Source: Promethearchaeota archaeon
GTDB taxonomy: Archaea; Asgardarchaeota; Lokiarchaeia; Sigyniarchaeales; SOKP01
DNA length: 57,555 bases
NCBI GenBank assembly: GCA_019894715.1
Contig: JAGXOA010000169.1
Location: 1 to 57,555, forward strand
Direction: 5' to 3'
Part shown: positions 1,996-56,888 of the stretch, in pieces
Position numbering within the stretch: position 1 is the stretch's first letter
Layout: every line of letters starts with the position of its first letter
The notes under the pieces: model-generated
Databases searched by the model: none
Seen by the model: only the letters and a program-made list of their open reading frames with translations
What the model was told of the DNA's origin: nothing
Program-made: the position numbers and the translations under genes

Positions 1996-4900
1996 ATGTT
2001 AAAAAAATACAACAATCGATTTCTAAATATTATTATTGTGTCATTCATCATTTTTGGTATTTTTATACCAAGTTTTTATCATACGATTTTTATTAATGAT
2101 TCTTACTCAAATCAATTTGTTGATAATATTAATGATATAAATATAAAAGCATCAAATAATCATATGTTTGAGGGGAATATAGACCCTTTAAACATAACAG
2201 ATTTTGGAAAATTATACAATAATAGTCAAAGTATATCATTAACTAACGAAGAAGAATATAATCTTCCCTATTTTATAGATACCGTACATGATTGGAATGC
2301 CTCTAAAATAGAGAATTCAATAACAAATATACAAGATACGAGAGATTGGGTTTATGAAAATGATTTTTATGAATTAGATGCTCCTTATATAAGATATGTA
2401 TCTATAGATAGCGCTCATAACTATAGTGCTGATTTGGATGACCTTCCCACAATTCCTGCAAATGTTCATGATAATATTACAGAGATTGGTGCTGCCGCCA
2501 TAAGAATACATTTTACACAAATTGAGTTTCAATTTAATATTGATTTATTATGCATATATGATGGAGTATTTGATCTTAAAACTGCTTTTACAGGTTCAGA
2601 TTCTGATTTTTATACTCCTTGGTTAGCTGCTGAAACATTATTATTAACAGTAACTTCAGATTCATCAATAGAATGGTATGGATATCAAATTGATTATTAT
2701 GAATTTTACAATGAAAGTACAAATTATTATAATTATCAAAGTTATTGGGATTTTAATAATGAAGACACTTGGAATCCAGCAAATTTTGGTCCTGGAGATA
2801 TTGGTGGCAATACAGCTATGTATGCAACATTATTAGCCTATCCATATAGAACTGAAGGTAAACTAGCGGCATATTATTGGGAAGGGGATTTTGCAGAAAT
2901 ATATCAAAATATAACCATCCCAAGAGGAGAAGTAATAGGTGGATATATTAGTTTTGATTATTATGCTGAATCTGCTATGAGATCTAATGAGAATTATATA
3001 TATTGTGAGATAAATAATGAGAAAATTTATTCAAAAGGATTACGTGATATTGTAAATGCAAATAGGACCACATGGCATAACACGGGTAAGATAAATATGG
3101 ATTTATGGATAAATAATACTGAAATATTTAATAATATTCAAAATAATCAAGATATTAATATTTCAATAGGTGTTATGAGTGGAGCTTCAGTCAGTTATAC
3201 TGGTTTTGAAGACAGATTTGAGCAAATTTTTTGGTTTGATAATATTTCATTAGAACTGACAACATTAGCGAATTCAAGCCAATCAGGAATTGATTTGAAA
3301 TTTGGAGCATCAGGATCATTAGTGGATTTAATAGAAGGTGCAGAGTGGGGAAATAGTAATAGAGATTTTGAAGGGCTTTGGGGGGAATTAAATCCATTAA
3401 TTCTTACTATAAATACAAGCTCTCCAAGCCTTTCTTTTGATTTAAACACATTTATATATGGATATCATAATGGAACTTCTAAGATAAATCAACAAAATAA
3501 TAAAGGTTTATTATATACAATTTTAAATAATGGAACAGTAATTTGGGATTTTTATCATAATTTTTATATGCCTCCATTATATACTGAATTTGAATTTAAA
3601 GTGGATAAACCATTAAATTGGGAAATTTTATCAATTTTAGATCCTACATTTCTCTCAGTTCCTTTTGAAGCGGGTAATATAGGGGATTCTTATGTAAAAA
3701 TTGGTTCTAGTGATGCAAAATATCCAGGATGGTGGAAAATTACAGCAACCTCTCCAAATTATATTGATATTGTAAATACAGAAGTTTCAAAAAATGGGGA
3801 CTGGGGAGAAAATGGATTTCTTACTGGAGATATAGCTCAGATAAGAACTCAAATAAATTATTCAGATGAAATTCCACCCAATTTAGATTCCACAATAGCA
3901 AATTTAACAATCTATGATATAGAAGGTAATATATGGCATCAAGAATCCCAAATACCTAATCTTGCCGATGGAATTGTATTATTTTCTGAAATTGATTTTT
4001 CAACAATGAATACTACGTATGGTGGAATTTATAATTATACTATTTTTTGGACAAATGGAACTGCAATAGGAGGTGTAAAATCTTCATTAACAATTGTTCA
4101 TGATAGTTATCTTACTCTTCTTGAACCAGATCATGCCCAAGAGGATCTTATTGCTAGTGGTAAAGTAGGAGATTATATTCCTGTAAGAATATTTGCAAGA
4201 GATTCTGAGAATAATAATTCACTATCACAAGGTATAGTATCATACAATTGGAGTATAGGATTGGGACCTATTATAAAGTATATGGACGAGACAGTTTCTG
4301 GTATCTATGATGCAATTTTGGATACAGATGATTTAGGTGCACGTGGTTTGTATCACATTGTGATTCAAATTAATCTAAGTGGATATGTATCAAGTAATTT
4401 AACTTTAGGGATAAATTTAGGTGAAGATACAAGTTTACAAAGATTACAATCAGATTCTCAAATCATTATCAATTCAAATAGTACTATCGAATTTTTCTAC
4501 GCTGGTTATGAGGAGGTCGGTATTACAGGAGCAACATTGACAATTAATATTTCAAATCCAATTTATTATTCTACGAGAGAATTAGGAGAAGGAAATTATG
4601 AAGTTGAAATAAATACAACTTTTATAGCTGCTACAGGAATATATATATTGGAATTCACTTTTAATGCTCCAGGATATGAAGAACAAATTCATCTTTATCA
4701 ATTTACAATAATCGATCCACCATCTACATCTGTAGGTCCAAATATTTTACTTTTATCTATTTTAGCTATAGCTGTAGCAATTATAGGAGGATTATCAATA
4801 TTAAGTTTAAGAACATATGTCCTTTTACCAAGAAGGAGGAGAAAAGAATCGGATATACTTGCTAAAACTCAGAGATTTAAAGATCTTAAAAATATACAAG

Positions 4901-5583
4901 CAATTGTTATAATTGATAAACTTAGTGGAGTTCCAATTTTATCAAAAAGCTATTCAATTCTAGAAACACATAAAAAAGAATTATTCTCAGGTTTCATTCA
5001 AGCAATAACTACAATTGGGGAACAAATTGCTGATAAAAAAACACTAAAAAGTTCAAAAGAAGCTAAAATGCAAACATCTAAGAGAGATAGACTTTTAGAG
5101 TTAGATTTCAAGTATTTCTATTGTCTAATTTGTGATATTGAAGATATTCGTGTTGTGTTAGTCCTTAAAGAAAAAGCTTCAGAAAGACTAAAAACTCAAA
5201 TAAGACGTCTTAGTGAAGCATTAACTCTTCAAATCTCAGAGCATCTACAAAATTGGGACGGATCAATAAATAAATTTGAAATCTTAATACCACCAATATT
5301 AGAAGACTATATCGAGATGTATTATAAAGAATCATTTAATCTCAACAATCCAAAACAAGTTGGAAAAATGAAGAGAGAAGGGCAGCTTAATTCAATGCAG
5401 ACCCGAGTTCTTAATGTTATTGATTCTATAGCAAAATATAGAAGTGATTTCTATTTAGAATATGTTCTGAATTCAATACATGAATCAAATAAGGATAAAG
5501 TAGTTATAGCATTAGAATCTCTAATCGAGAAAAAAATAATCATCCCAAAAAGTGTGGATAAAGATTATATGAAATATACTTAA
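1996..5583 (+). CDS. Large type-I membrane surface protein: signal anchor, ~880-aa N-glycosylation-rich ectodomain, one TM helix, ~270-aa cytosolic longin/roadblock-like domain
   Basis: N-terminal hydrophobic anchor (IIIVSFIIFGIFIPSF). About 28 N-x-S/T sequons counted by eye. TM helix ILLLSILAIAVAIIGGLSILSL followed by RRRRK (positive-inside). The cytosolic tail reads IQAIVIIDKLSGVPILSKSY...ELFSGFIQAITTIGEQ...FKYFYCLICDIEDIRVVLVL. Confidence 0.75.
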   Translation: MLKKYNNRFLNIIIVSFIIFGIFIPSFYHTIFINDSYSNQFVDNINDINIKASNNHMFEGNIDPLNITDFGKLYNNSQSISLTNEEEYNLPYFIDTVHDWNASKIENSITNIQDTRDWVYENDFYELDAPYIRYVSIDSAHNYSADLDDLPTIPANVHDNITEIGAAAIRIHFTQIEFQFNIDLLCIYDGVFDLKTAFTGSDSDFYTPWLAAETLLLTVTSDSSIEWYGYQIDYYEFYNESTNYYNYQSYWDFNNEDTWNPANFGPGDIGGNTAMYATLLAYPYRTEGKLAAYYWEGDFAEIYQNITIPRGEVIGGYISFDYYAESAMRSNENYIYCEINNEKIYSKGLRDIVNANRTTWHNTGKINMDLWINNTEIFNNIQNNQDINISIGVMSGASVSYTGFEDRFEQIFWFDNISLELTTLANSSQSGIDLKFGASGSLVDLIEGAEWGNSNRDFEGLWGELNPLILTINTSSPSLSFDLNTFIYGYHNGTSKINQQNNKGLLYTILNNGTVIWDFYHNFYMPPLYTEFEFKVDKPLNWEILSILDPTFLSVPFEAGNIGDSYVKIGSSDAKYPGWWKITATSPNYIDIVNTEVSKNGDWGENGFLTGDIAQIRTQINYSDEIPPNLDSTIANLTIYDIEGNIWHQESQIPNLADGIVLFSEIDFSTMNTTYGGIYNYTIFWTNGTAIGGVKSSLTIVHDSYLTLLEPDHAQEDLIASGKVGDYIPVRIFARDSENNNSLSQGIVSYNWSIGLGPIIKYMDETVSGIYDAILDTDDLGARGLYHIVIQINLSGYVSSNLTLGINLGEDTSLQRLQSDSQIIINSNSTIEFFYAGYEEVGITGATLTINISNPIYYSTRELGEGNYEVEINTTFIAATGIYILEFTFNAPGYEEQIHLYQFTIIDPPSTSVGPNILLLSILAIAVAIIGGLSILSLRTYVLLPRRRRKESDILAKTQRFKDLKNIQAIVIIDKLSGVPILSKSYSILETHKKELFSGFIQAITTIGEQIADKKTLKSSKEAKMQTSKRDRLLELDFKYFYCLICDIEDIRVVLVLKEKASERLKTQIRRLSEALTLQISEHLQNWDGSINKFEILIPPILEDYIEMYYKESFNLNNPKQVGKMKREGQLNSMQTRVLNVIDSIAKYRSDFYLEYVLNSIHESNKDKVVIALESLIEKKIIIPKSVDKDYMKYT

Positions 5584-24543: not shown

Positions 24544-25728
24544 TTACATTGTATGTATTTCAATTATATCATTATCAATTATAGAATATTCTAATCCTAC
24601 TTTTTTACGATTTTGTCTAGCATTTTTTCTCATGACGATTGCAAAATCAAATAATTCAACAAAAGATCTATGGATTTTATGAGCTACATCTTTGATAATT
24701 GCTCCTTTATCTAAGATTAAAGGTCTCTCAGCTACTTTACCTGAATTCATAGTATAAACTCTTATTTTATTTAGTAGATTTAATACAAGTTCCCCAAAAT
24801 TAGGGGGAAAATTTTTTTTATGTATACTTGAAGCAATTAATTTGAAATCTTGAGAAAATTTAGACTTTAATATTTCAAATCTTTCTTCAGTGTGGGGAAG
24901 ATCTCCTTTTGTGCCTATAATAATTGCTTTTTTATAGACTATTGAAGGATTTAACCTATCAACAATTTGATCTAATGTAATTTTGCCATTTAGTTTTACA
25001 ATACAATTTTGAATTCCATTTTCTTGAATAATTTTTTTAATCTTGTCTGTTAAATCCATATTTTCTTTGGATTCTTTTGTCAAAAATAAGACCTGAATAT
25101 TATTTGAACCTGTTTTTTCAATATTAATTGTAGGTAAAGGTTCATTGATTTTAATATCAGCATTATTAAGTTCATAAAGTAGTAGTTCTATTTGCTCCTC
25201 AATACTTCTTGATAAATCAACACACATACAAATGAGATCACATGAGCGAATTTGTGATATTATTTCTTTACCATTTCCTACACCCTTAGAAGCATCTTTC
25301 ATAATAGAGGGCATATCAACAATTTGATATCTGATATTTTGGTAATTTAAAATCCCTATTTCAGGGAGAGCATTAAAACTCCCAATTTTACTCTTAGCAG
25401 CATTTGTTAAGAAATTTAATAGTGAAGTTTTTCCAACTCCTGGTGTATGATAATCACTGATTAGAATTATTTGGATCCCTTCCTTTTTAATTGAGAAAGG
25501 GCTGACAACTTTACTAATTGATTTTTGATTATTTTTATCTAATTGCCTTCTAAGTTTCGCAAGTTTAGATTTATTTAGTGCAACAATATTTTCTGTTGCT
25601 TTGTGTTTAGGTATTAAAGATATAAACTCTTCAAGATGTTTAATTTGTTCTTCTAGAGATTCGGCATCTAAATACTTTTGATATGCAGCTTGTGCTTCAG
25701 GGCCTATATTAGATGACAAAAAAATCAC
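24544..25728 (-). CDS. Divergent DRG/Rbg-family (Obg-like) GTPase with a C-terminal TGS domain
   Basis: KHKATENIVALNKSKLAKLRRQL resembles DRG KNKATE..LG.LKAKLAKLRREL. The P-loop is TPGVGKTSLLNFLT. G3 reads DMPS instead of DLPG. G4 is TKGD. TGS-like IRVYTMNSGKVAERPLILDKGAIIKDVAHKIH... Confidence 0.75.
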   Translation of the reverse strand: MIFLSSNIGPEAQAAYQKYLDAESLEEQIKHLEEFISLIPKHKATENIVALNKSKLAKLRRQLDKNNQKSISKVVSPFSIKKEGIQIILISDYHTPGVGKTSLLNFLTNAAKSKIGSFNALPEIGILNYQNIRYQIVDMPSIMKDASKGVGNGKEIISQIRSCDLICMCVDLSRSIEEQIELLLYELNNADIKINEPLPTINIEKTGSNNIQVLFLTKESKENMDLTDKIKKIIQENGIQNCIVKLNGKITLDQIVDRLNPSIVYKKAIIIGTKGDLPHTEERFEILKSKFSQDFKLIASSIHKKNFPPNFGELVLNLLNKIRVYTMNSGKVAERPLILDKGAIIKDVAHKIHRSFVELFDFAIVMRKNARQNRKKVGLEYSIIDNDIIEIHTM

Positions 25729-25737
25729 TCTTGGTAT

Positions 25738-26199
25738 CTAAAATATTGATCTAAATCTATCTTCTGTTTTTAGTTTTAAATCTCCTAAAATATTATCAAT
25801 TCTTTCTGTAAATTGTTTTTCAAAAAATTTCTTTTTTTTAGAAAAAATATCATTAATAGAAAATCGATTTAAGAAATGTTTATTGATTTCTATTAGATGT
25901 TTTTTAACAACATCAGTATCTGTTTCTTTTTCAATAATTGCATAATAAAGTAATGGTTGTTTGTCATCACTTTCATTATAAAGAGGTAATGAGATGGATT
26001 CTGAATAACATACCAATTTAAAGGATGCAAGTGATACGACGTTAATATCATCACCAAAAACTTCAGAAGTGAAACTTTCTAAAGCAGAAAGAAATCCTGC
26101 TCTTAAATCTGGATCTAATGGATTTTCTGAAGCGGAGTAATATTGAATTTCAAAGATATTCTTGTTTCCTAGATTAATTCCGATTTCGAGAACAGCCAT
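25738..26199 (-). CDS. Small longin/roadblock-like domain protein
   Basis: 153 aa. LRAGFLSALESFTSEVFGDDINVVSLASFKLVCY...LLYYAIIEKETD...VKKHLIEINKHF has the same beta-beta-alpha-beta-beta-alpha layout as the cytosolic domain of 1996..5583. It stops 9 nt upstream of the GTPase start. Confidence 0.5.
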   Translation of the reverse strand: MAVLEIGINLGNKNIFEIQYYSASENPLDPDLRAGFLSALESFTSEVFGDDINVVSLASFKLVCYSESISLPLYNESDDKQPLLYYAIIEKETDTDVVKKHLIEINKHFLNRFSINDIFSKKKKFFEKQFTERIDNILGDLKLKTEDRFRSIF

Positions 26200-27181: not shown

Positions 27182-28288
27182 TCAGATTTGTCTTCGTTTC
27201 CATAAAAAGAATAATAATCCAACAACAACGCCAATTACCACTAAAATAGCTAAGAGAATAACCCAATTAAATTCTACAATCCCAATTTCATTATTCAATG
27301 AACCAAGTGCATTAAGTACGCTAAGAATTCTATAAGCATTATATGAACTTATAATAGACGAGTTTTGAACACCACTCTCCGCAGAAGGATCAGAGAATCC
27401 ACCATCAAGTATGTTTTGGCGATCTAAAATCCAATTTATAGTTGAATCTCTGTCATTATATTCTGGATTTGGTATCATTGATATTAATTTAATACTATAA
27501 TAGGTACTCCAAATTACTGTTTGTGTTAGAGCAAGATCAGGTCTATACCCACCATTAGAAAGATAAAAATCCTTAGCATATTGAGTAATATTATCTTTGT
27601 TAGTAGATGTCAAATTATCATAACTATTCAAGTTATCAAGAGCAAGAGCAGCATAATATGTAGGTGATAAATCTGAAATACTAGTAGAATTTCCGCCAAA
27701 TCCACCATCAGAATTATTGCATGTTAATAACCAATTCACATGTATTAATTCATTATCCAATATCTCATTAATCAATTCATAATTTTTAATTCCATAAAAT
27801 GTTGATATAACAGTTGGAGTGGATGTTGTGTTTTTCATAGTAAATCCACCTGTGATTTGTGCTGTCTGGTTAATATAATCTATAATTTTTCCGTTTAAAC
27901 TACTATTTGATGTGATTATATCATCTATTTGTCCTAGGATATTTAATGAGCTTAATAGATAATATAAATCATGAAGATCAATTGTTTGATATTCAAATAA
28001 ATAATATATTGCTTTTCCAAGATTTTCTGCCAATAATACTGGATCTACATGGATATTCATTTGATTAAAATCACTAAGCATATCTAATGCATAATAGGTT
28101 GCTTCATAAGAAATAGAACCACTAAATTCGATAGCATTTGTAAATCCTTCAGATTCGGAAATCCTATTATTTGAGATAAAATCTATCAAATAATTACTCC
28201 TTAATTTTGCTGATGACAAAGGAGTTATTATAAATAATGATAATAATGTAAGGCATATCAATAATTTTTTAGTATGTGTCGTTTTCAA
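27182..28288 (-). CDS. Secreted, C-terminally membrane-anchored protein with prenyltransferase/terpene-cyclase-like (alpha-alpha toroid) repeats
   Basis: Signal peptide (LLICLTLLSLFIITPLSSA). Repeated GGF/DGGF motifs (TGGFTM, SDGGFGG, SNGGYRP, LDGGFSD). C-terminal TM WVILLAILVVIGVVVGLLFFLW followed by KRR. Confidence 0.6.
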   Translation of the reverse strand: MKTTHTKKLLICLTLLSLFIITPLSSAKLRSNYLIDFISNNRISESEGFTNAIEFSGSISYEATYYALDMLSDFNQMNIHVDPVLLAENLGKAIYYLFEYQTIDLHDLYYLLSSLNILGQIDDIITSNSSLNGKIIDYINQTAQITGGFTMKNTTSTPTVISTFYGIKNYELINEILDNELIHVNWLLTCNNSDGGFGGNSTSISDLSPTYYAALALDNLNSYDNLTSTNKDNITQYAKDFYLSNGGYRPDLALTQTVIWSTYYSIKLISMIPNPEYNDRDSTINWILDRQNILDGGFSDPSAESGVQNSSIISSYNAYRILSVLNALGSLNNEIGIVEFNWVILLAILVVIGVVVGLLFFLWKRRQI

Positions 28289-28429: not shown

Positions 28430-29968
28430 CTAATAATTAGCAAAAATTTGGGATATATCTGTATGGAGAATTTCATTATCTATCTTAAATTGTTCTCTGG
28501 TTATAAATAAATTTCTGAAAGAGGGTAAACTTCCCAATATTGTAGCACCATTATATATAGCTAATTGAAGATTATTAGGTATAAAGAATCTTATACCACT
28601 TTTAGAAGAATCTGTATATTCACTGAAACCTATATTTTTTAATGAAGCTTCTTTTGCTTTTTGAATTTCTTTTATTGGTATTTTAGGTGACTCAATCTTT
28701 AGATTATTACCACAATAAGGACAAAATACAGAATTTTTATCTGTAATTTCTTTTTTGCATTTAGAACAATTTATTGAGATATTGTTGTTATCTTGATTTA
28801 TTTCTATTTTAATTTGAGGAAACTCCATATTTGCACCACATTGTGGACAATTAGGTTGATCTTCTGCTAAATTAACTAGGATCCCACATTGAGGACAATT
28901 ATCTTGAACTTTTTTATTTCCTTCAATTGGTTTGAGAGCATCAACTTTTTCTTCTTTTTTATCATTCTTTATTTTAGTTTTAATTGATATTCCATATTGA
29001 GGTAATAATACATTTAATTCAGCTCTAAGTCTTTCCTCAAAACCGCTATGAGAAAGATTACCACCAGAAAGCACAATATGTGATAATAAATCTGTCCAAT
29101 ATTCTTGACCGACATTTTGCAAACAAGTAATTATAGAATGTTGGATTCCGGGAGAATTTGATCCAATCATAGAAGGTTGAAATAAAACCTCTGTTGAATT
29201 ATAGAGGACATGATCTGGTATTTGCACAGTCGAGCCATCAGGCATAGAATAAGCTATACTATCTCCACCTTTTTGAGGATTGTTAGGATCAATGATAAAA
29301 TAACAATTCTTTTCTTTTATTTCTTTAATAATTTCATCAACGGCAGAAGATGAAATATTGATTCCTTCTCTCATAAGAAGTGTTTTGAGATTATTACTTA
29401 CATCCATACCAGCTAAATTTAATCTTTGTACTGCTTGCAAAATTATTTGTCCATTAACTATTGGCACTATCCAAGTAATTCCATCACCACTTTCAATAAC
29501 CAAGCCCGTTGTTAGACCAACAGAGAAACATGAAAGAATAGGTGATGGCACCATAAGTAAATGATTAATTTGATGCGTTTCAAATAGCACTCTTGCAATA
29601 AATTCCTTAATATCTTTTGGTTGAAATGGATTCTCGATGTAAATGATTGGGTAATCTAATGGATTTTGAATCCTGAGAAGTGTGTAAAGAATGTGATTTA
29701 AGATTTGATAATAGCTATCCCAATCCACAATTGACCCCCGTTGGATAGGATGGGATATCTTTAGAACTCCCCTCATTTTCATAGCATCTTGTCCTACGTA
29801 CACATTTCTTGCATCTACATCAACCATAACAGAGTGATATTTCTCAGTCCCAGTTATACAAGGAAAAATATATCGAGGGTTTATCTCGCCAGCAAACCCC
29901 ACTTTTACATAAGCAGATCCAATATCAATTATGATTGGAGTTCCGGGTGTTGGTAATGACATTTTCAT
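28430..29968 (-). CDS. Actin-family protein (actin/Arp-like) with a ~130-aa double zinc-ribbon insertion
   Basis: Colinear with eukaryotic actin: IIIDIGSAYVKVGFAGEINPRYIFPCITG (cf. [29 protein letters not shown]), YVGQDAMKMRGVLKISHPIQRGSIVDWD, GLVIESGDGITWIVPIVNG, LNLAGMD, YSMPDGSTVQI, LFQPSMIG, IVLSGGN, IYNGATILGSL. The insertion carries CPQCG..CPQCG and CSKC..CPYCG. Confidence 0.85.
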   Translation of the reverse strand: MKMSLPTPGTPIIIDIGSAYVKVGFAGEINPRYIFPCITGTEKYHSVMVDVDARNVYVGQDAMKMRGVLKISHPIQRGSIVDWDSYYQILNHILYTLLRIQNPLDYPIIYIENPFQPKDIKEFIARVLFETHQINHLLMVPSPILSCFSVGLTTGLVIESGDGITWIVPIVNGQIILQAVQRLNLAGMDVSNNLKTLLMREGINISSSAVDEIIKEIKEKNCYFIIDPNNPQKGGDSIAYSMPDGSTVQIPDHVLYNSTEVLFQPSMIGSNSPGIQHSIITCLQNVGQEYWTDLLSHIVLSGGNLSHSGFEERLRAELNVLLPQYGISIKTKIKNDKKEEKVDALKPIEGNKKVQDNCPQCGILVNLAEDQPNCPQCGANMEFPQIKIEINQDNNNISINCSKCKKEITDKNSVFCPYCGNNLKIESPKIPIKEIQKAKEASLKNIGFSEYTDSSKSGIRFFIPNNLQLAIYNGATILGSLPSFRNLFITREQFKIDNEILHTDISQIFANY

Positions 29969-30584: not shown

Positions 30585-30980
30585 TTAATAAAGTTTTTTT
30601 ATCTTTTGTTCTAGATTTTTTTTAAGATTATTTACTTCTTCTAGCATACTATTATAAACCATTAATAGGAAATTACCCCATTCATTTAATTCTACTGTCC
30701 CCCCTCCACCAGTACCTCCTTTATGTGTGATAACAGGGGACATTCCCGTCCTCTTTTCGATTCTTTTCAAAATATTCCATGCATATTTATACGAATAATT
30801 GCATTTTTCAGCAGCTTTTGATAAGGATTTTATTTGATCATTACTAATGGATTCTAATAATCTTGCCCAACCCTTACCTAATATACTATTTCCCTCAACT
30901 TGTAACCAAAATTTTAAACCAAAGTCAACTTTTTTTTTCAATTCTGCAATATTTTGATGATTGCTCATACTAATAATCAT
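30585..30980 (-). CDS. ModE N-terminal-domain-like wHTH regulator
   Basis: LGKGWARLLESISNDQIKSLSKAAEKCNYSYKYAWNILKRIE...GGTGGGGTVELNEWG matches the ModE/COG2005 HTH pattern (S.s.AA..lg.SY..aW..i...e...G......GG..GGG..LT..G). Confidence 0.7.
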   Translation of the reverse strand: MIISMSNHQNIAELKKKVDFGLKFWLQVEGNSILGKGWARLLESISNDQIKSLSKAAEKCNYSYKYAWNILKRIEKRTGMSPVITHKGGTGGGGTVELNEWGNFLLMVYNSMLEEVNNLKKNLEQKIKKLY

Positions 30981-32788: not shown

Positions 32789-35536
32789 ATGATAATTATG
32801 TTCGATATTGAAGATTTTCAAGATTATACTGCAATCATTCCAAATATAAAAAAAATCAATAAATTATTACAGAAAGAAAAATATACGAATATTTCTTCGC
32901 AAATCGAAGAATTAAAAATCTATTTGGATGATGAAACTTTAAAAGTTCCGATTACATATATATTTAGCATTTTAGCTGAAAATAATTCAGATTTATTTGA
33001 ATCAGAACTAATTGAAAAAATTGAACCTTTACTTTTTTCAGATAATATCAAATTAAAATTAAATTCGATATCTATCTTAGGTTTCTTTATTATAAATAAA
33101 CCCAACCTTATTGATATAAAGTATTTTTCCCTGTTTACTAAATTATTGATAAATGAAAAGAAGGATATAAGAGAAAATTGTTATTATTTTCTACAGAGAA
33201 TGTTTGATGTAAATCAAAAGGATATATGGCAATTTAAAGATAATCTACTTGAAGCTTTAGAATTAGAGATTTCTGATTCAAAACTAGAGAATATCACAAT
33301 TATCCTCAATTTTATTCAAAATTGTGATAATTTTAATTTTAAACAATTATATAAATTGAGAGAATTATCGATTAAAATTATTTCAGAATTTAATAGTACA
33401 ATTGATTTAAATTTAAAATCAATATTAAAAAATCTACTTAGAAAATTATATCCTGAATTAATGGAAGTTGATTTTGAAGATGATAATACAAAAGATCTAT
33501 TAAATTGCATAAAAAATACTTTTATCCAACGAAAGTATATTTTTGATGATAAGATAAAAAAAGAAAAAAATATAGAATTTAAGGATTATTTAGAAGAATT
33601 TAAAAAATATGTTTTGAAAGAAAAAGAGATTTATTTTTATTTTAAAGACCAGGAAAAGAAAAGTATAACTCTCTTTGAATTAGAAAAAATGAAGACAATT
33701 GAATTTTTTAATCAAAATCATAAGATTTCACATCAAAATATAATTGATAAATTTCAAAAGGTAATAGATGATTCTAATCTTCAATTATTTATAAAAACTC
33801 TAATAAAATTAAGACATATTAGGGGATTTCTTTCAGAATTCAATTTTTATCCTTCAAATTATATTGAATCAGAACTTATGAATTCTTTAAAAGAAGTTGG
33901 CTATATAAAATTAGAGGATTTTAACTATCTTCCTATAGATTTTATAATAGATCTAATTAAAAAAGTTTCAAATGAGGCAAATTATAAGATTTTAGTAGGT
34001 AAAGAAAAGAAAAAATTCTATGTTTTATCTAATATTACTGAGAAAATTAGAGAAATAGCTGCTAAGGAAAATTGTATTAATTTAAAAAACTATAGAGAGC
34101 AATTTACAGAAAATTCATTTGTTAAAATTCTGAAAACACTACCTAAAGATTATTTGACAGAATATCACAAAGGATCAAGTTGGTTAACTAATATTGGAAA
34201 ATATCGCTTTTCAAAAGAGTTAGGTAATTCTAAAATCATAGGGTTCTTTGATGTTGAGAAAATTAAAGAAAAAATAGATGTAAAAGAAGAATTGATTCTG
34301 GAGATATTTAGCACAGAAATTGATATTCGTAGTGGAATATGGAATAGGCCAAAAGATGTATTTTATTATTCGAGATATATCAAAGAAAAAATTGAGAATA
34401 TAAATCAAATAAAAGATCCTCAAGAAAGATCAGATAGAATAAATAAATTATCAAGAGAACTTAATATTGAAAAGGCAAAGATTATCGGAAAAATTGATGA
34501 AAATATCGAATTAATAGGAGAAGAAATTAGAAATCAAGAACAAATCAATATCTCTGAATATTTAGAAAAAATAGGGATGAATTATAATGTATTTTTTGAA
34601 TTTATAAATAATTTAAAATTAAATTACCTTAAAAGAGGAGATATACTCATATTTAATCCCTCAAAAATAGAAAATGCTAAGAAAGAAATAAAACAATTGA
34701 TAATAAGAGATAGTAAAACTATGGATTTTATTTCTTTAGATAATTTTGATATGAATTCAACAATAATAAAAGAGTTAATTGAAGAATTACAAAAATTAGG
34801 CGAGATTAAAGGTATTATATATAAAGAAATAGAAGAAAAATTTTATACTGAAATTGGTCTAAGGAATATAATGCTTTCAAATATATTTCTCTTTTCTTTC
34901 CATGATTTCTTTTATGGTAAAACATTAAATAAAGATGAAATATCAATTCTTTTAGACATTTTTTATGATATAAAAAAACAGGGAATACTAAAAGGCTCAT
35001 TTAATAAAGAGACTTTAACCTTTTCTAGTGATGAAATAGTATTTGCCAAGGATTATAATACTAATTTAGATCAATTCAGAATTATAGTTAATAATTATAT
35101 AAAACGATTTAAATCTGAGTTTAATAATATTAAACCTATTCTAAATAAAAAAACAGCCATTATTCCACAGGAAATAAAAATTATACAAGATGCTATTGAG
35201 AGGATAAATGATAACTATGTATTTTGGAAAAATAAATTAGATGCTTACATAACAAGAGTTAATAAGAAATTATTAGAAGACCAAGGTATTTCTGTAAAAA
35301 AATATAATTCTGTTTCATATACAGGTATGAATAAAAAGGATATAAAAGCTTTTGTAGAAGATAAAGAAGTTAAAGAACAAATGGAAAGATTCAATTTTTG
35401 GGTGAGTCTTTTTAATAAAATAGAATTGAAATATCAAAATGTGATTTTTTATCAAAAAAGATTTTTAACCAATCCAGATGATCAAGAATCTAAGCAAAAT
35501 CTGTTGGAATTAAGGGAAGAACTAAATCTAAATTAG
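32789..35536 (+). CDS. Large (915 aa) cytoplasmic protein: N-terminal HEAT/ARM-like helical repeats followed by repeated winged-helix-like modules; function unknown
   Basis: No TM helix or signal peptide. N-terminal units such as LLFSDNIKLKLNSISILGFF and LLINEKKDIRENCYYFLQRM look HEAT-like. Later segments repeat a pattern (...G.I.L.DF...L..DFI...I...) suggestive of WH modules. Confidence 0.45.
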   Translation: MIIMFDIEDFQDYTAIIPNIKKINKLLQKEKYTNISSQIEELKIYLDDETLKVPITYIFSILAENNSDLFESELIEKIEPLLFSDNIKLKLNSISILGFFIINKPNLIDIKYFSLFTKLLINEKKDIRENCYYFLQRMFDVNQKDIWQFKDNLLEALELEISDSKLENITIILNFIQNCDNFNFKQLYKLRELSIKIISEFNSTIDLNLKSILKNLLRKLYPELMEVDFEDDNTKDLLNCIKNTFIQRKYIFDDKIKKEKNIEFKDYLEEFKKYVLKEKEIYFYFKDQEKKSITLFELEKMKTIEFFNQNHKISHQNIIDKFQKVIDDSNLQLFIKTLIKLRHIRGFLSEFNFYPSNYIESELMNSLKEVGYIKLEDFNYLPIDFIIDLIKKVSNEANYKILVGKEKKKFYVLSNITEKIREIAAKENCINLKNYREQFTENSFVKILKTLPKDYLTEYHKGSSWLTNIGKYRFSKELGNSKIIGFFDVEKIKEKIDVKEELILEIFSTEIDIRSGIWNRPKDVFYYSRYIKEKIENINQIKDPQERSDRINKLSRELNIEKAKIIGKIDENIELIGEEIRNQEQINISEYLEKIGMNYNVFFEFINNLKLNYLKRGDILIFNPSKIENAKKEIKQLIIRDSKTMDFISLDNFDMNSTIIKELIEELQKLGEIKGIIYKEIEEKFYTEIGLRNIMLSNIFLFSFHDFFYGKTLNKDEISILLDIFYDIKKQGILKGSFNKETLTFSSDEIVFAKDYNTNLDQFRIIVNNYIKRFKSEFNNIKPILNKKTAIIPQEIKIIQDAIERINDNYVFWKNKLDAYITRVNKKLLEDQGISVKKYNSVSYTGMNKKDIKAFVEDKEVKEQMERFNFWVSLFNKIELKYQNVIFYQKRFLTNPDDQESKQNLLELREELNLN

Positions 35537-45264: not shown

Positions 45265-46851
45265 TTGAGTATTATGTCAGAAGAACTAAATAAAACAGAA
45301 ATAAAGAAAGAATTAGAAAATGAACAAAATGATGATCAAAAAGAAGGAATATTTGAAAATCAAAAATCTGAAAAGGCTGTAGTAATACAAGCTGAAGTAT
45401 ATAAAACAATTATACTTTATGCAAGTCGATATGCTAATAGTGCAATTCCTCCTTCAGAATGGAAGGAAATTTATGGTGTATTAATTGGACATATTGATGA
45501 TGATTTTGTTCATGTTGAGAGTGCAGAAGCTTTAACATTTGGACACGATACAGACGTGCATTTAGATAATAGACATTATACTTTTATTGCTCAATTGGAT
45601 GAAGAGTTATATAATGAGGATAAAAAACACCATATAGTTGGATGGTTTCATTCTCATCCTAATTTAGGTCTATTTTTTTCTGGTGTAGATCTTAGAAATC
45701 AATTATTTTTTCAGACTCATAAAGATGGAATAGGCTTAGTTTTTGATCATACTTTATTGGGTAAAAAAAAACAAGAAAAAATAGAAGGAACAGAACACAC
45801 AATTAGCAAATACGATACGGGATTTGAGATATACAGAATTAATGATGTAGAAATGGACCCAGATGATCCAAACTTTAACGATAATTATCATAGTGTTGAT
45901 TATATTGTCAAGGGACTAAATAAATTCTTCTTTGCAAATGTATTAAACGAATTATCGGCATTGGTTAGTGCAGGAAAGCCACTACAATCTGCTTATGGAG
46001 AGGACTTCAAACTAGAATCAAATTATACAGGCGATTTAGACTCCAGTTATCTAGATCCTAATAAAATATACAATAATATTTCATCATTTGATGAAAACAT
46101 ATTGGAAAATATTCCAATGGAAGAAAATATTTCTTTTAGTGGTGATGATCTGTTTTATAATAAATCCTCAAAAAGAGAAAATAAAAATTCAGATATTAGG
46201 CAACAAGCAGAACAATTAATATTTGAAGGAACACAATATTTTGAGAATAAAGATATTGTTGATGGAGTTGAAAAATTTGAAAAAGCAATACAAAAATATG
46301 AAAAAATTGGAGATCAAGAAAAAGTATTTGAACTCCTAAAAAAATTGTCTGAAAATTGTATATCAAGTAATCATTTATTTTTAGCTAAAGAATTTTCCAT
46401 TCGATTGAAGGATTTATCAGAAAAAGTAGATAATTTATTTTTTAGAGGAGAAGCCAATTATTTATTAGGATATTTATTACTTAAAAAAGGAGATAATGAA
46501 TTCTTAAGTGAGGGTCTTAATAAGATAAGAGATGCTGCAATATTATTTGAAAAGCAAGAAGATTATGTAGGAGCAGCAACTTGTTTTCATAAAATAGGTA
46601 GTACTTATCAAACAAGGTTAAATAAATTGGATAATAGTTGTCTATTTTACAGAGAAGCTATAGAGAACTATAATAAAGCAATACTTAAAAGCCACCCTAA
46701 TAGAAAATCTCTATGGTCCAAGCCTGAAATATTATCAAAAAAGATTCTTGAATTAAAAGATATTATTGAGGAAATACTCCCAAAATTAGATAATCTAAAT
46801 ATTCGAGATAAAATTAGAAATGATTTGGATTCTATCAATTATAATTTCTAA
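45265..46851 (+). CDS. JAB1/MPN/JAMM metalloprotease domain fused to a C-terminal TPR-like helical domain
   Basis: The JAMM motif is complete: E (EWKEIYGVLIG) ... GWFHSHPNLGLFFSGVD (HxHx7Sx2D). The C-terminal ~230 aa contains TPR-like units (AEQLIFEGTQYFENKDIVDGVEKFEKAIQKYEKIGD..., YLLGYLLLKKGDNEF...). Confidence 0.82.
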   Translation: MSIMSEELNKTEIKKELENEQNDDQKEGIFENQKSEKAVVIQAEVYKTIILYASRYANSAIPPSEWKEIYGVLIGHIDDDFVHVESAEALTFGHDTDVHLDNRHYTFIAQLDEELYNEDKKHHIVGWFHSHPNLGLFFSGVDLRNQLFFQTHKDGIGLVFDHTLLGKKKQEKIEGTEHTISKYDTGFEIYRINDVEMDPDDPNFNDNYHSVDYIVKGLNKFFFANVLNELSALVSAGKPLQSAYGEDFKLESNYTGDLDSSYLDPNKIYNNISSFDENILENIPMEENISFSGDDLFYNKSSKRENKNSDIRQQAEQLIFEGTQYFENKDIVDGVEKFEKAIQKYEKIGDQEKVFELLKKLSENCISSNHLFLAKEFSIRLKDLSEKVDNLFFRGEANYLLGYLLLKKGDNEFLSEGLNKIRDAAILFEKQEDYVGAATCFHKIGSTYQTRLNKLDNSCLFYREAIENYNKAILKSHPNRKSLWSKPEILSKKILELKDIIEEILPKLDNLNIRDKIRNDLDSINYNF

Positions 46852-55790: not shown

Positions 55791-56888
55791 TTAAGATTCA
55801 TCAAGAACCTTGAAAAAATGTCCAATTCCTATTAATTTAAAAGTATCAATAACATTTTTATTGTATAGAGCAGAAGTTTCTATGAAAAAACTTCTCAGTT
55901 CTTCTGCTTTTTTTTTGCCTTCTTCTATTGATATTTGACGTTTACTTTCTAAATCTACTTTATTACCAATAATAACAAAAGGTATATCTCCTAATTCTTT
56001 CTTAGCATCCTTGAACCAAAAATCTATACTTTCATCAAAAGTCTCCCTTCTTGATATATCATATACTATGAATACACAATTTGCACCAGTGTAATATTCA
56101 TGCCTGACACGTTTAAAAAATTCTTGCCCAGCATAATCATAAATTAAGAAAGTGATAATTTCGTCTTTAAAACCTTGAATACAATATTTCTGCATTGAAA
56201 TATTCATCCCTATTGTAGGACGATAACCAAATTTTTGTTCTTTATTTAAAAAACTATTAACGAGTGTTGTCTTACCTACAGAAGCAGAGCCAAGTATAAT
56301 TAATTTAAAATTGACATCAACTTTTTTCTCTCTAGAAATGTGATGTTTTAAGATAACATCCTGAGCTAATGGTTCTGATTCTTTAACTTTGTATTTCTCC
56401 AAAAATATGTCAAATTCACGATAAATATTTAATTCTGGAATTTCAAGGGAATTAAATTTATAATCAAAAGTCCCTTCGAGTAATTGAGCTATTTTTTCAA
56501 CAACCAAATAAGCTATGGGAAAAACACTATTTAAATCTGCTTTATAATTACAGACACATACCATTACTGCTTCTGGACCCGCCTCAAGAAAAATTATCCG
56601 ATGATCTGGAGTATCAAATGAACCTGTACCAAAATTATTAAGATTATATTCCATTGATATTTTTTTAAAAAGATTTTCAACTAGTCCAGAAATAGCACCA
56701 TACACTTCTTCCATATTTTTTTTATTATTGCTATCGTCTGATAATTCAGTCATGTCAAATTTCGAAATAAGTAATCCTTCTCTGTTATAAAGGAAAACTA
56801 GTTCAACATCATACCCAGATTCCACAAAATTTTTTAATAGTGTAGATATATTTTGTTCTATATTAATACTCATGAAAATCCTTTCCAA
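55791..56888 (-). CDS. Roadblock/LC7-domain + Ras/Rab-like small GTPase fusion protein
   Basis: The N-terminal ~150 aa (VELVFLYNREGLLISKFD...VYGAISGLVENLF...HRIIFLEAGPEAVMVCVCN) is roadblock-like. The C-terminal GTPase has G1 ILGSASVGKTTLVNSF, G3 DYAGQEFF, G4 GNKVDL and G5 ETSALYN. Confidence 0.8.
   Translation of the reverse strand: MERIFMSINIEQNISTLLKNFVESGYDVELVFLYNREGLLISKFDMTELSDDSNNKKNMEEVYGAISGLVENLFKKISMEYNLNNFGTGSFDTPDHRIIFLEAGPEAVMVCVCNYKADLNSVFPIAYLVVEKIAQLLEGTFDYKFNSLEIPELNIYREFDIFLEKYKVKESEPLAQDVILKHHISREKKVDVNFKLIILGSASVGKTTLVNSFLNKEQKFGYRPTIGMNISMQKYCIQGFKDEIITFLIYDYAGQEFFKRVRHEYYTGANCVFIVYDISRRETFDESIDFWFKDAKKELGDIPFVIIGNKVDLESKRQISIEEGKKKAEELRSFFIETSALYNKNVIDTFKLIGIGHFFKVLDES

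Follow-up and report, generated by a model that had tools for sequence, protein, structure and literature searches.

Results

The window analyzed here, a stretch of 57,555 nucleotides from a Promethearchaeota archaeon (contig JAGXOA010000169.1), includes at positions 28430..29968 of the minus strand the whole gene of an actin-family paralogue that carries a double zinc ribbon inside one of its loops. The open reading frame is uninterrupted and codes for 512 amino acids; its true start is likely to be the second ATG, at 29962, which is the start used in the database models of the protein and gives a product of 510 amino acids. A conserved neighbor located downstream on the same strand (27182..28288) codes for a 368-aa type-I membrane protein whose ectodomain is a prenyltransferase-like alpha/alpha toroid; the protein also has a signal peptide, a transmembrane helix at the C-terminus and a basic tail of 6 aa (WKRRQI). 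Upstream, also on the minus strand (30585..30980), there is a gene for a small winged helix-turn-helix (wHTH) protein of 131 aa with a weak match to HTH_1. The membrane-protein gene is always found downstream of the actin gene, including in divergent lineages, and the wHTH gene is usually found upstream, with a homologue directly upstream in three divergent loci. In the main clade, a DEAD-box helicase gene is located at a distance of four genes. A linkage to this helicase, by analogy with nuclear Arps, was considered and rejected because it is not kept outside the main clade. Scanning for bacterial-type promoters and terminators is uninformative in archaeal DNA.

The first-pass annotation, made from the sequence alone, had described the product as colinear with actin apart from a single large insertion within the fold, and this description was borne out by Pfam, phmmer, AF2 and Foldseek. 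The Pfam Actin profile (PF00022; cut-off 27 bits) matched aa 10-335 with a score of 230.2 bits (E=4.3e-68), and the best phmmer matches in the PDB were actins (8e-70 to 1e-63). In the phmmer alignment aa 2-324 correspond to actin up to about residue 326 and aa 459-495 to actin from about residue 328. Since the alignment resumes at aa 459, the extra segment is aa 325-458 (nt 28595..28996), precisely the interval annotated before. It is located between actin residues P322 and I327 and is large, as claimed, with a length of 134 aa instead of about 130. The N-terminal part of the core (aa 1-324; 28997..29968, minus strand) comprises subdomains 1, 2, 4 and most of 3. The C-terminal part (aa 459-512; 28433..28594, minus strand; pLDDT ~85-93) corresponds to the actin segment that runs from I327 (KIIAPPERK...) through the C-terminal helices of subdomain 1 and closes the fold. 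The AF2 model has a pLDDT above 90 in the core, aa 459-512 included, and Foldseek gave TM scores of 0.85-0.92 to G- and F-actin over ~500 columns (normalized to the actin chains). The halves that flank the insert are therefore modeled as one actin fold, complete with all four subdomains. Other than the insert, the core has only two indels with respect to actin, one residue after actin position 97 and about four residues in subdomain 4.

An assembly or frameshift artefact was rejected: there is one uninterrupted reading frame, hundreds of independent assemblies have the same arrangement, and the last 54 aa complete the fold. An intein or other mobile insertion was also rejected, as there were no intein-type matches, the site and the cysteine pattern are kept across deep clades, and the base composition is unchanged.

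The insert begins and ends with linkers of opposite charge. The N-linker (aa 325-355; 28904..28996, minus strand; pLDDT <50) has a conserved base, (L/Y)G-x-IPKP, followed by a variable Lys-rich stretch with a conserved Leu at aa 345, and its mean net charge is +3.4. It leads to ribbon 1 (aa 356-380; 28829..28903, minus strand), with the pattern D-x-C358-P-x-C361-G ... C374-P-x-C377-G and a fixed x12 spacing. A variable linker (aa 381-398; 28775..28828, minus strand; 14-26 aa across the family, or 19-31 residues from the last Cys of ribbon 1 to the first Cys of ribbon 2) precedes ribbon 2 (aa 399-422; 28703..28774, minus strand), with the pattern C401-x2-C404-x-K406..D410..S413-x-F415-C416-P-x-C419-G and a fixed x11 spacing. 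The motifs read by the first-pass annotation, DNCPQCG-x12-CPQCG and CSKC-x11-CPYCG, were correct; both ribbons are of the C4 type (C-x2-C-x12-C-x2-C and C-x2-C-x11-C-x2-C). The C-linker (aa 423-458; 28595..28702, minus strand) is acidic, with a mean net charge of -3.7; aa 432-444 are weakly predicted to form a helix, and an acid-aromatic motif, x-E-[FY] (FSEY in this protein), is conserved.

Across 120 homologue clusters, conservation of the eight cysteines is 100%. The site of insertion and the Cys pattern recur in divergent clades. The insert goes beyond chance, because all eight cysteines are kept and the ribbons have constant spacings of 12 and 11 residues, in contrast to linkers of varying length. 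Both predicted ribbons are expected, from these patterns, to bind zinc, and both bear conserved surface residues. The Zn_ribbon_3 profile (PF13248) matched two stretches with 34.2 bits against a cut-off of 27, and DZR (PF12773), which is recorded for most relatives, fell just under its cut-off (23.7 bits versus 27.3). A word-index protein search with the insert alone recovered nothing, not even its own family, and an exhaustive profile search was used instead. This search produced 3416 matches at E<=0.001, with thousands of multi-ribbon proteins. Against the PDB, the profile of the insert found only generic, non-significant ribbons (eL43, Rpo12, NOB1, RanBP2-type), and Foldseek of the insert model gave no match at E<0.1, with local single-ribbon likeness to RanBP2/NZF, NOB1 and Nop10. 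Since the matches are generic and non-significant, they do not point to a specific ligand. The suggestion that the ribbons might pack as one independent domain was not upheld. In the insert-only AF2 model (pTM 0.27) the ribbons have pLDDT values of 77-85 and the linkers of 50-60, which describes two independently folded beads on disordered, variable linkers. Residues 426-455 have a pLDDT below 55 in the models of both the full protein and the insert alone, and AF2 gave no confident placement of the insert on the actin core.

The residues of the nucleotide site are well preserved. The core has the phosphate-1 motif D15-x-G17-S18..K22, the phosphate-2 motif E159-S-G161-D162-G163, and G302-G303, and 106-119 of 119 family sequences keep each of the positions D15, G17, S18, K22, G161, D162, G163, K218, E219, G302 and G303. 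In contrast, the canonical hydrolysis residues found in lokiactin, Q137 and H161, are replaced across the insert-bearing family: by S142 and W166 in the protein from the window and, each in 116 of the 119 sequences, by T or S and by W, respectively. The surfaces used by actin for self-association are also recognizable. The hydrophobic V47-M48-V49 of the D-loop is nearly invariant; K43, Y44, M48 and D50 do not vary, not even between clades with just 35% identity; and the hydrophobic plug (F-x-P-x-[ML]-[LI]-G), the barbed-end cleft (F148, G151, T153, G173, I477, L478, L481, S483) and the P243-D244-G245 contact of subdomain 4 are conserved. Two observations count against the filament-adaptor reading proposed below: the C-terminal F375 of actin is not conserved in the family, and AF2 confidence is low for aa 40-72.

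The insertion site had been placed on subdomain 3, near the barbed-end face. This was roughly right; the exact site is the 322-325 loop of subdomain 3, whose partner in the longitudinal contact is 243-245 in subdomain 4 of the next subunit, and it adjoins K326 and K328 on the filament surface. The base of the loop around the insert (LGPIP...I[KR]FF) is conserved. The insert takes the place of half of the longitudinal contact and could block assembly instead of being tolerated.

The same architecture was found in at least 120 protein clusters and in at least 128 species-representative genomes, with a single copy of one gene per locus. On the actin core, the insert-bearing proteins form one deep clade apart from all insert-less actins sampled. 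Their core is 33% identical to rabbit actin, a figure that reaches 44-68% in most of the insert-less actins. A single acquisition of the insert lies at the base of this clade, and a search for insert-less orthologues within the family found none. One family sequence (P0285) retains ribbon 1 and has lost ribbon 2, and another (P0286, 409 aa) is a truncated gene that stops after ribbon 1. Taxon labels would extend the family to "Hod-/Thor-/Odin-/Hermodarchaeota"; this was not accepted because the synteny of 11 genes, the GC content and the identity match Lokiarchaeia loci. Judged by profile scores, the protein has far more in common with eukaryote-type actin than with crenactin, MreB or MamK, which with ParM are also filament-forming members of the actin superfamily in prokaryotes: the crenactin model gave 21.3 bits against a cut-off of 630, MamK 24.9 against 400, and MreB_Mbl 16.6 against 27. 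The top 60 PDB sequence matches are all actins and none of them Arps.

Discussion

The gene codes for a real, widely conserved and apparently undescribed actin relative of Lokiarchaeia-type Asgard archaea. The proteins themselves are already in the public databases, where hundreds of relatives were automatically named "zinc ribbon domain-containing protein" or "actin-related protein". The claim of novelty stands for the architecture, as no description of a zinc module within an actin or Arp fold was found in the searchable literature, and not for the sequences. The protein resembles lokiactin and eukaryotic actin (PDB 9wc4, "HC1 actin"; rabbit alpha-actin) in its four-subdomain fold, order of motifs, D-loop, plug, cleft and PDG loop. 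It differs from them by the 134-aa zinc-ribbon loop at actin 322-327, a separate clade, a core identity of ~33% to rabbit actin, the changes Q137 to S/T, H161 to W, H73 to R and K336 to Q, and its C-terminus. Eukaryotic Arps with loop insertions (Arp3, Arp5, Arp8) likewise combine the actin scaffold with lineage-specific surface insertions for new binding, and some Arps are devoid of the canonical hydrolysis residues. The alphaK/beta15 insert of Arp3 may be a precedent at the same site, to which no weight is given here. We know of no eukaryotic Arp with a metal-binding module inside the fold, nor was one found in the searchable literature.

The ribbons resemble in sequence small archaeal modules of the DZR, Zn_ribbon_3 and DUF7575 families. 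Members of those families, to which no function is assigned, occur as terminal or free-standing domains, while here an actin surface loop harbors a pair of them. Another parallel is CdpC from Haloferax volcanii, in which a C4 ribbon binds FtsZ1 and the other ribbon region binds the membrane, and distant multi-ribbon relatives of CdpC were reported in Lokiarchaeia (bioRxiv 10.64898/2026.07.16.738847). Compared by architecture alone, CdpC and the insert both have two CPxCG-type zinc ribbons parted by a disordered linker. However, CdpC is a stand-alone adaptor, whereas the ribbons in the window are nested in the cytoskeletal protein.

We propose, with confidence somewhat short of even, that the protein is a lineage-specific, Arp-like actin paralogue of Lokiarchaeia-type Asgard archaea that is competent for filament formation, hydrolyzes ATP slowly and displays zinc-ribbon adaptors. 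The protein would bind nucleotide, since the phosphate-1, phosphate-2 and adenosine motifs are kept, and hydrolysis may be slow or absent, since both water-activating residues are replaced family-wide; the result would be a stable scaffold instead of a treadmilling polymer. The conserved contact surfaces suggest that the protein is polymerization-competent and would retain actin-type head-to-tail contacts, with itself or with lokiactin. Each protomer would then extend from the subdomain 3 loop of the 322-325/243-245 longitudinal contact a flexible tether of ~134 aa consisting, in order, of the basic linker, ribbon 1, the variable linker, ribbon 2 and the acidic linker with x-E-[FY]. By analogy with the dual CPxCG ribbons of CdpC, which on their disordered linker tether FtsZ1 to the membrane, the ribbons may serve as adaptors at the tip of the tether that bring a partner to the filament. 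Candidate partners are a protein, another cytoskeletal polymer, membrane or nucleic acid. Because two zinc-binding modules ride on a flexible loop at a site of filament contact, the protein probably links an actin-like filament to another cell component. Transcript levels of the three non-lokiactin homologues of L. ossiferum are several-fold below that of lokiactin; should one of the three be the counterpart of the protein in the window, this would speak against a bulk filament. Published trees place these three homologues among "ARPs".

That low transcription also suits a capping or terminal subunit, which would use its conserved D-loop or cleft to add itself to a lokiactin filament at one end. 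With the insert exactly in the subdomain 3 half of the longitudinal contact, further longitudinal growth would stop, so that the protein would serve to cap or nucleate the filament while its ribbons anchor that end to a target, a logic analogous to that of Arp1/Arp11 in dynactin or of Arp2/3. The conservation of both actin faces and a gene that occurs once per locus, without indications of a high copy number, are consistent with this role. Nonetheless, the conserved base of the loop suggests a contact that was remodeled and not destroyed, the lateral plug, needless for a pure capper, is conserved too, and no Arp2/3- or dynactin-type partner subunits were found in the gene neighborhood. We regard capping as unlikely, with an appreciable chance of being right. 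An inhibitory role for the insert was also considered, in which the ribbons or the acidic linker, which carries the helix and x-E-[FY], would fold onto the protein's own barbed-end or nucleotide cleft and block assembly until a signal (zinc, redox state or a partner) frees it. The idea that the insert gates polymerization draws on the closeness of the insert to the barbed-end cleft, the conserved basic-then-acidic polarity of the linkers, the occurrence of x-E-[FY] across all clades, and the precedent of ARPC1, in which an aromatic residue (F302) on an inserted helix plugs actin's barbed-end groove. Considering that x-E-[FY] is missing in 23 of 119 sequences and that AF2 did not dock the poorly modeled aa 426-455 segment with confidence, such a gate seems improbable.

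The remaining explanations concern what the ribbons bind, if anything. A non-polymerizing, nucleotide-bound Arp that works within a complex and binds DNA or RNA through its ribbons, as in the logic of nuclear Arp4/5/8, would account for the loss of the catalytic residues, as seen in several non-hydrolyzing Arps, the weak resemblance of the ribbons to those of ribosomal eL43 and RNA-polymerase Rpo12, the basic N-linker and, in the main clade, the nearby helicase gene. Yet this gene is unlinked in divergent lineages, the matches to the ribbons are generic and non-significant, on average ribbon 1 is acidic, and the core is colinear with actin save for the insert and the two small indels, whereas nuclear Arps bear several larger insertions. 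This role appears rather improbable. It is very unlikely, finally, that the insert is a neutral or purely structural decoration of the lineage with no ligand, such as a thermostabilizing metal clip. Archaeal proteins abound in generic DZR modules, as the number of profile matches illustrates, and P0285 does without ribbon 2; but the eight cysteines, D356, K406, F415 and the P and G positions are invariant in proteins whose cores are 35-50% identical between clades, and ribbons that are not packed on the core are unable to stabilize it.

The adaptor-bearing paralogue that we favor bears on how labor is divided among the several Asgard actin paralogues, of which, to our knowledge, only lokiactin has been visualized. 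It indicates that an archaeal lineage diversified actin as eukaryotes did with Arps, by putting a binding module into a surface loop, and that it drew for this on the CPxCG zinc ribbon, a building block typical of archaea. A more speculative extension, to which we give little credence at present, is that the actin with its ribbons, the downstream membrane protein and the upstream wHTH protein are a dedicated module, inherited together, in which a specialized, non-treadmilling actin-like filament is coupled via its tethers of zinc ribbons and acidic linker to a cell-surface structure. If so, it would be a prokaryotic forerunner of transmembrane linkages between cytoskeleton and surface, and would be relevant to the surface structures and protrusions of cultured Lokiarchaeia. 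Being conserved, single-copy, easily recognized and located in a fixed neighborhood, the gene offers a testable handle on actin-associated functions in Lokiarchaeia, among them anchoring, capping and cross-talk with other polymers, membrane or nucleic acid, and cultured strains could be used for its study if they encode it.

Results

The actin-ZnR gene, an actin-family gene with a double zinc ribbon nested in the actin fold, occupies 28430..29968 (-) as an unbroken ORF of 512 aa, in a window that is AT-rich throughout (GC 22-32%). The identical database protein has 510 aa and starts two codons downstream of the ORF start. Two in-frame ATG codons (MKMSL...) are present at 29962..29968, and we favour the second as the real start because it agrees with the family consensus MALPLPGTP and is the one used in the database entry. 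Pfam Actin matched aa 10-335 with E=4e-68, covering positions 5-365 of the 410-position profile, and several Pfam zinc-ribbon models matched aa 358-425, Zn_ribbon_3 above its curated cut-off and DZR slightly below it. A phmmer search of all PDB sequences returned actins as the best 60 matches, headed by 9wc4 'HC1 actin' (8e-70), from the cultured Hodarchaeales strain HC1; eukaryotic actins came next, with E-values of about 1e-64 to 1e-65. These alignments came in two pieces: aa 2-324 ran to about actin residue 326, and aa 459-495 picked up again at about residue 328. The protein was also aligned with the rabbit alpha-actin sequence, whose motifs were consistent with the PDB alignments. P323 corresponded to actin P322 and I459 to actin I327; therefore, the insert comprises aa 325-458, nucleotides 28595..28996. 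The first-pass annotation had placed it at the same coordinates, and the segment contains DNCPQCG-x12-CPQCG and CSKC-x11-CPYCG.

The insert is neither an artefact nor a chance occurrence. With an E-value limit of 1e-20, a homology search with actin-ZnR produced 310 clusters. Of these, the best 120 are all 494-523 aa long, carry Actin and zinc-ribbon domains, share 54-85% identity and conserve the eight cysteines without exception. Ribbon spacing is constant (x12 and x11), in contrast to the stretch between the last cysteine of ribbon 1 and the first of ribbon 2, which is 19-31 residues long. Mean column conservation in the same 120 clusters was 0.79 for the core, 0.71 and 0.66 for the ribbons and 0.43-0.53 for the three linkers. 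A scan of GTDB with a single genome for each species found relatives in 128 genomes, and the 80 relatives listed are all full length. In an AlphaFold2 model built from the family alignment, core pLDDT was mostly >90, including the C-terminal 54 aa beyond the insert. In Foldseek, G- and F-actin chains aligned with this model across about 500 columns, at TM-scores of 0.85-0.92 when normalised to the actin chain; therefore, the two halves form one contiguous actin fold, as had been proposed from the sequence.

The core was surveyed in 119 actin-ZnR sequences, using actin numbering. Insert aside, two small indels suffice to align the protein with actin, and core identity to rabbit actin is 33%. 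The nucleotide-binding residues D11, G13, S14, K18, G156, D157, G158, K213, E214, G301 and G302 are kept, and D154 is changed to E. Both water-activating residues are replaced, Q137 by T/S and H161 by W, each in 116/119 sequences; H73 is R in all 119, and K336 is Q. The D-loop has the length of actin's and nearly invariant hydrophobic residues; K43, Y44, M48 and D50 show no variation even in the most divergent clades, and the hydrophobic plug and the barbed-end cleft are conserved. From these residues we infer that actin-ZnR would bind ATP, hydrolyse it poorly and retain both faces of head-to-tail assembly.

The full-length AlphaFold2 model gave a pLDDT of about 70-76 for the ribbons and <50 for the linkers. 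When the insert was modelled alone with its own alignment, these values were 77-85 and 50-60, with a pTM of 0.27, so the insert is predicted to consist of two C4 ribbons that fold independently and are strung on flexible linkers, and not of a single compact domain. Packing of the ribbons as an independent domain, which the first-pass annotation had singled out for checking, was not borne out by these models. The N-linker, which is basic (mean charge +3.4), opens with a conserved (L/Y)G-x-IPKP. The C-linker is acidic (mean charge -3.7); a helix is weakly predicted in it, and it carries an x-E-[FY] motif found in 96/119 sequences and recognisable across all divergent clades. Several non-cysteine residues are invariant or nearly so even at 35% inter-clade identity, namely D356, P359, G362, P375 and G378 in ribbon 1 and K406, D410, S413, F415, P417 and G420 in ribbon 2, which argues for specific binding surfaces on the ribbons. 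Searching solved-structure sequences with the insert gave only weak matches to generic ribbons (eL43, RNA polymerase Rpo12/P, NOB1, YacG and Nop10), and the local fold match, also weak, was to a generic ribbon of RanBP2/NZF type.

K326 and K328 of actin are filament-surface residues at the tropomyosin-binding site; a solved K326/328Q actin-tropomyosin complex was among the Foldseek matches of the model. Actin residues 322-325 in subdomain 3 touch residues 243-245 in subdomain 4 of the next subunit along the filament (PMC7247010). From this contact and the surface position of the two lysines it follows that the insert leaves actin exactly at the longitudinal contact, on the outer face of subdomain 3. 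All 119 sequences keep the partner element P243-D244-G245 unchanged, and both loop ends are conserved (LPQ-LG-x-IP... and ...I-[KR]-F-F-[VI]-P).

A profile of the insert alone, searched exhaustively, matched 3416 proteins at E<=0.001, mostly unrelated multi-ribbon proteins, together with P0134, P0135 and P0160, actin-ZnR proteins <50% identical to the main clade (those close to the window protein). A further search added P0275-P0281 (524-597 aa). All these divergent proteins share the insertion site and the eight cysteines, and some have long K/E-rich extensions of the C-linker. The homologue P0285 (499 aa) keeps ribbon 1 and has lost ribbon 2; P0286 (409 aa) stops after ribbon 1, probably because of a frameshift or truncation of the gene. 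The searches turned up no insert-less orthologue. In a rough neighbour-joining tree of the insert-masked core, built without support values, all insert-bearing proteins grouped together, apart from all sampled insert-less actins, and split into at least three deep branches with 39-50% mutual identity. Because they all fall in one clade, the tree suggests that the insert was acquired once, long ago.

Thirteen loci from a batch of JBHL... MAGs are labelled Hod-, Thor-, Odin- or Hermodarchaeota (L008, L013, L020, L024, L030, L036, L037, L043, L050, L057, L070, L071 and L080). Where the flank suffices, their 11-gene synteny, GC (27-31%) and identities are those of the Lokiarchaeia loci; L013 is a 2.6-kb contig on which the actin gene alone is visible. 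The labels were therefore not accepted as evidence of a spread beyond Lokiarchaeia, and they look unreliable. P0284, a 378-aa partial protein labelled 'Firmicutes bacterium HGW-Firmicutes-12' with OB-fold Pfam matches, has an actin part 79% identical to P0160; mis-binning of an Asgard contig or a chimeric gene call is the probable explanation.

About ten neighbours of the main-clade gene are syntenic in 57-76 of 80 loci. The block holds a DRG-type GTPase (DRG/TGS-type in the window, 24544..25728), an adjoining 153-aa protein without a Pfam match (25738..26199 (-)), FolD, a prenyltransferase-like membrane protein (27182..28288 (-)), actin-ZnR itself, a CBS protein, a small wHTH protein (30585..30980 (-)), an MBL hydrolase and a membrane protein. 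The 153-aa ORF is the best conserved gene of the block (65-92% identity vs 54-85% for the actin) and may encode a small GTPase-partner protein. A 915-aa ORF without a Pfam match (32789..35536 (+)) belongs to the block in 42/80 loci. Elsewhere in the window are two genes of eukaryote-signature type, a 365-aa small GTPase of the Ras/Roc/Arf family that is extended by about 190 aa at its N-terminus (55791..56888 (-)) and a 528-aa JAB/MPN protein (45265..46851 (+)), as well as a 1195-aa ORF without a Pfam match (1996..5583 (+)).

At the five divergent-clade loci (L081, L083, L084, L085 and L086) the surroundings differ and three elements stay. A homologous membrane protein (25-41% identity) lies directly downstream of actin-ZnR in all five (the gene is split in L084, and the contig of L086 ends within it); FolD comes next in the three loci that extend far enough; and a wHTH homologue is directly upstream in 3/5. 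The downstream protein is a type-I membrane protein with a signal peptide and a prenyltransferase-like alpha/alpha-toroid ectodomain; a single TM helix at the C-terminus is followed by just 5-7 basic residues of cytoplasmic tail. Its persistent pairing with actin-ZnR is suggestive of a functional link, which the spacing of 75-325 bp between the genes and the shortness of the tail keep tentative.

Discussion

The best-supported reading is that actin-ZnR is a filament-competent, slowly hydrolysing actin paralogue with putative adaptor ribbons, in which every protomer would display a flexible double zinc-ribbon adaptor off the filament surface. An archaeal precedent for such a role is CdpC, a Haloferax volcanii adaptor with two CPxCG-type ribbons and a disordered linker between them; one ribbon binds FtsZ1 and the other end the membrane, and its authors noted distant multi-ribbon relatives in Lokiarchaeia (bioRxiv 10.64898/2026.07.16.738847). 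Rival explanations differ in what they assign to the protein or to its insert. Actin-ZnR could cap filament ends or anchor them as a specialised subunit, or it could be a non-polymerising Arp that binds nucleic acid; the insert, for its part, could act as an autoinhibitory gate or be a neutral decoration.

Public databases name these proteins automatically, as 'zinc ribbon domain-containing protein', 'actin-related protein', 'centractin' or 'actin-related protein/RNA polymerase subunit RPABC4...'. The L. ossiferum paper mentions three 'ARPs' besides lokiactin and gives no detail on their domains. The freely searchable full-text literature, the key Asgard cytoskeleton papers included, yielded no account of a zinc-binding module within the actin/Arp fold. 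Actin-ZnR is a real and conserved actin paralogue, apparently undescribed so far, of moderate to high interest to the Asgard cytoskeleton field.
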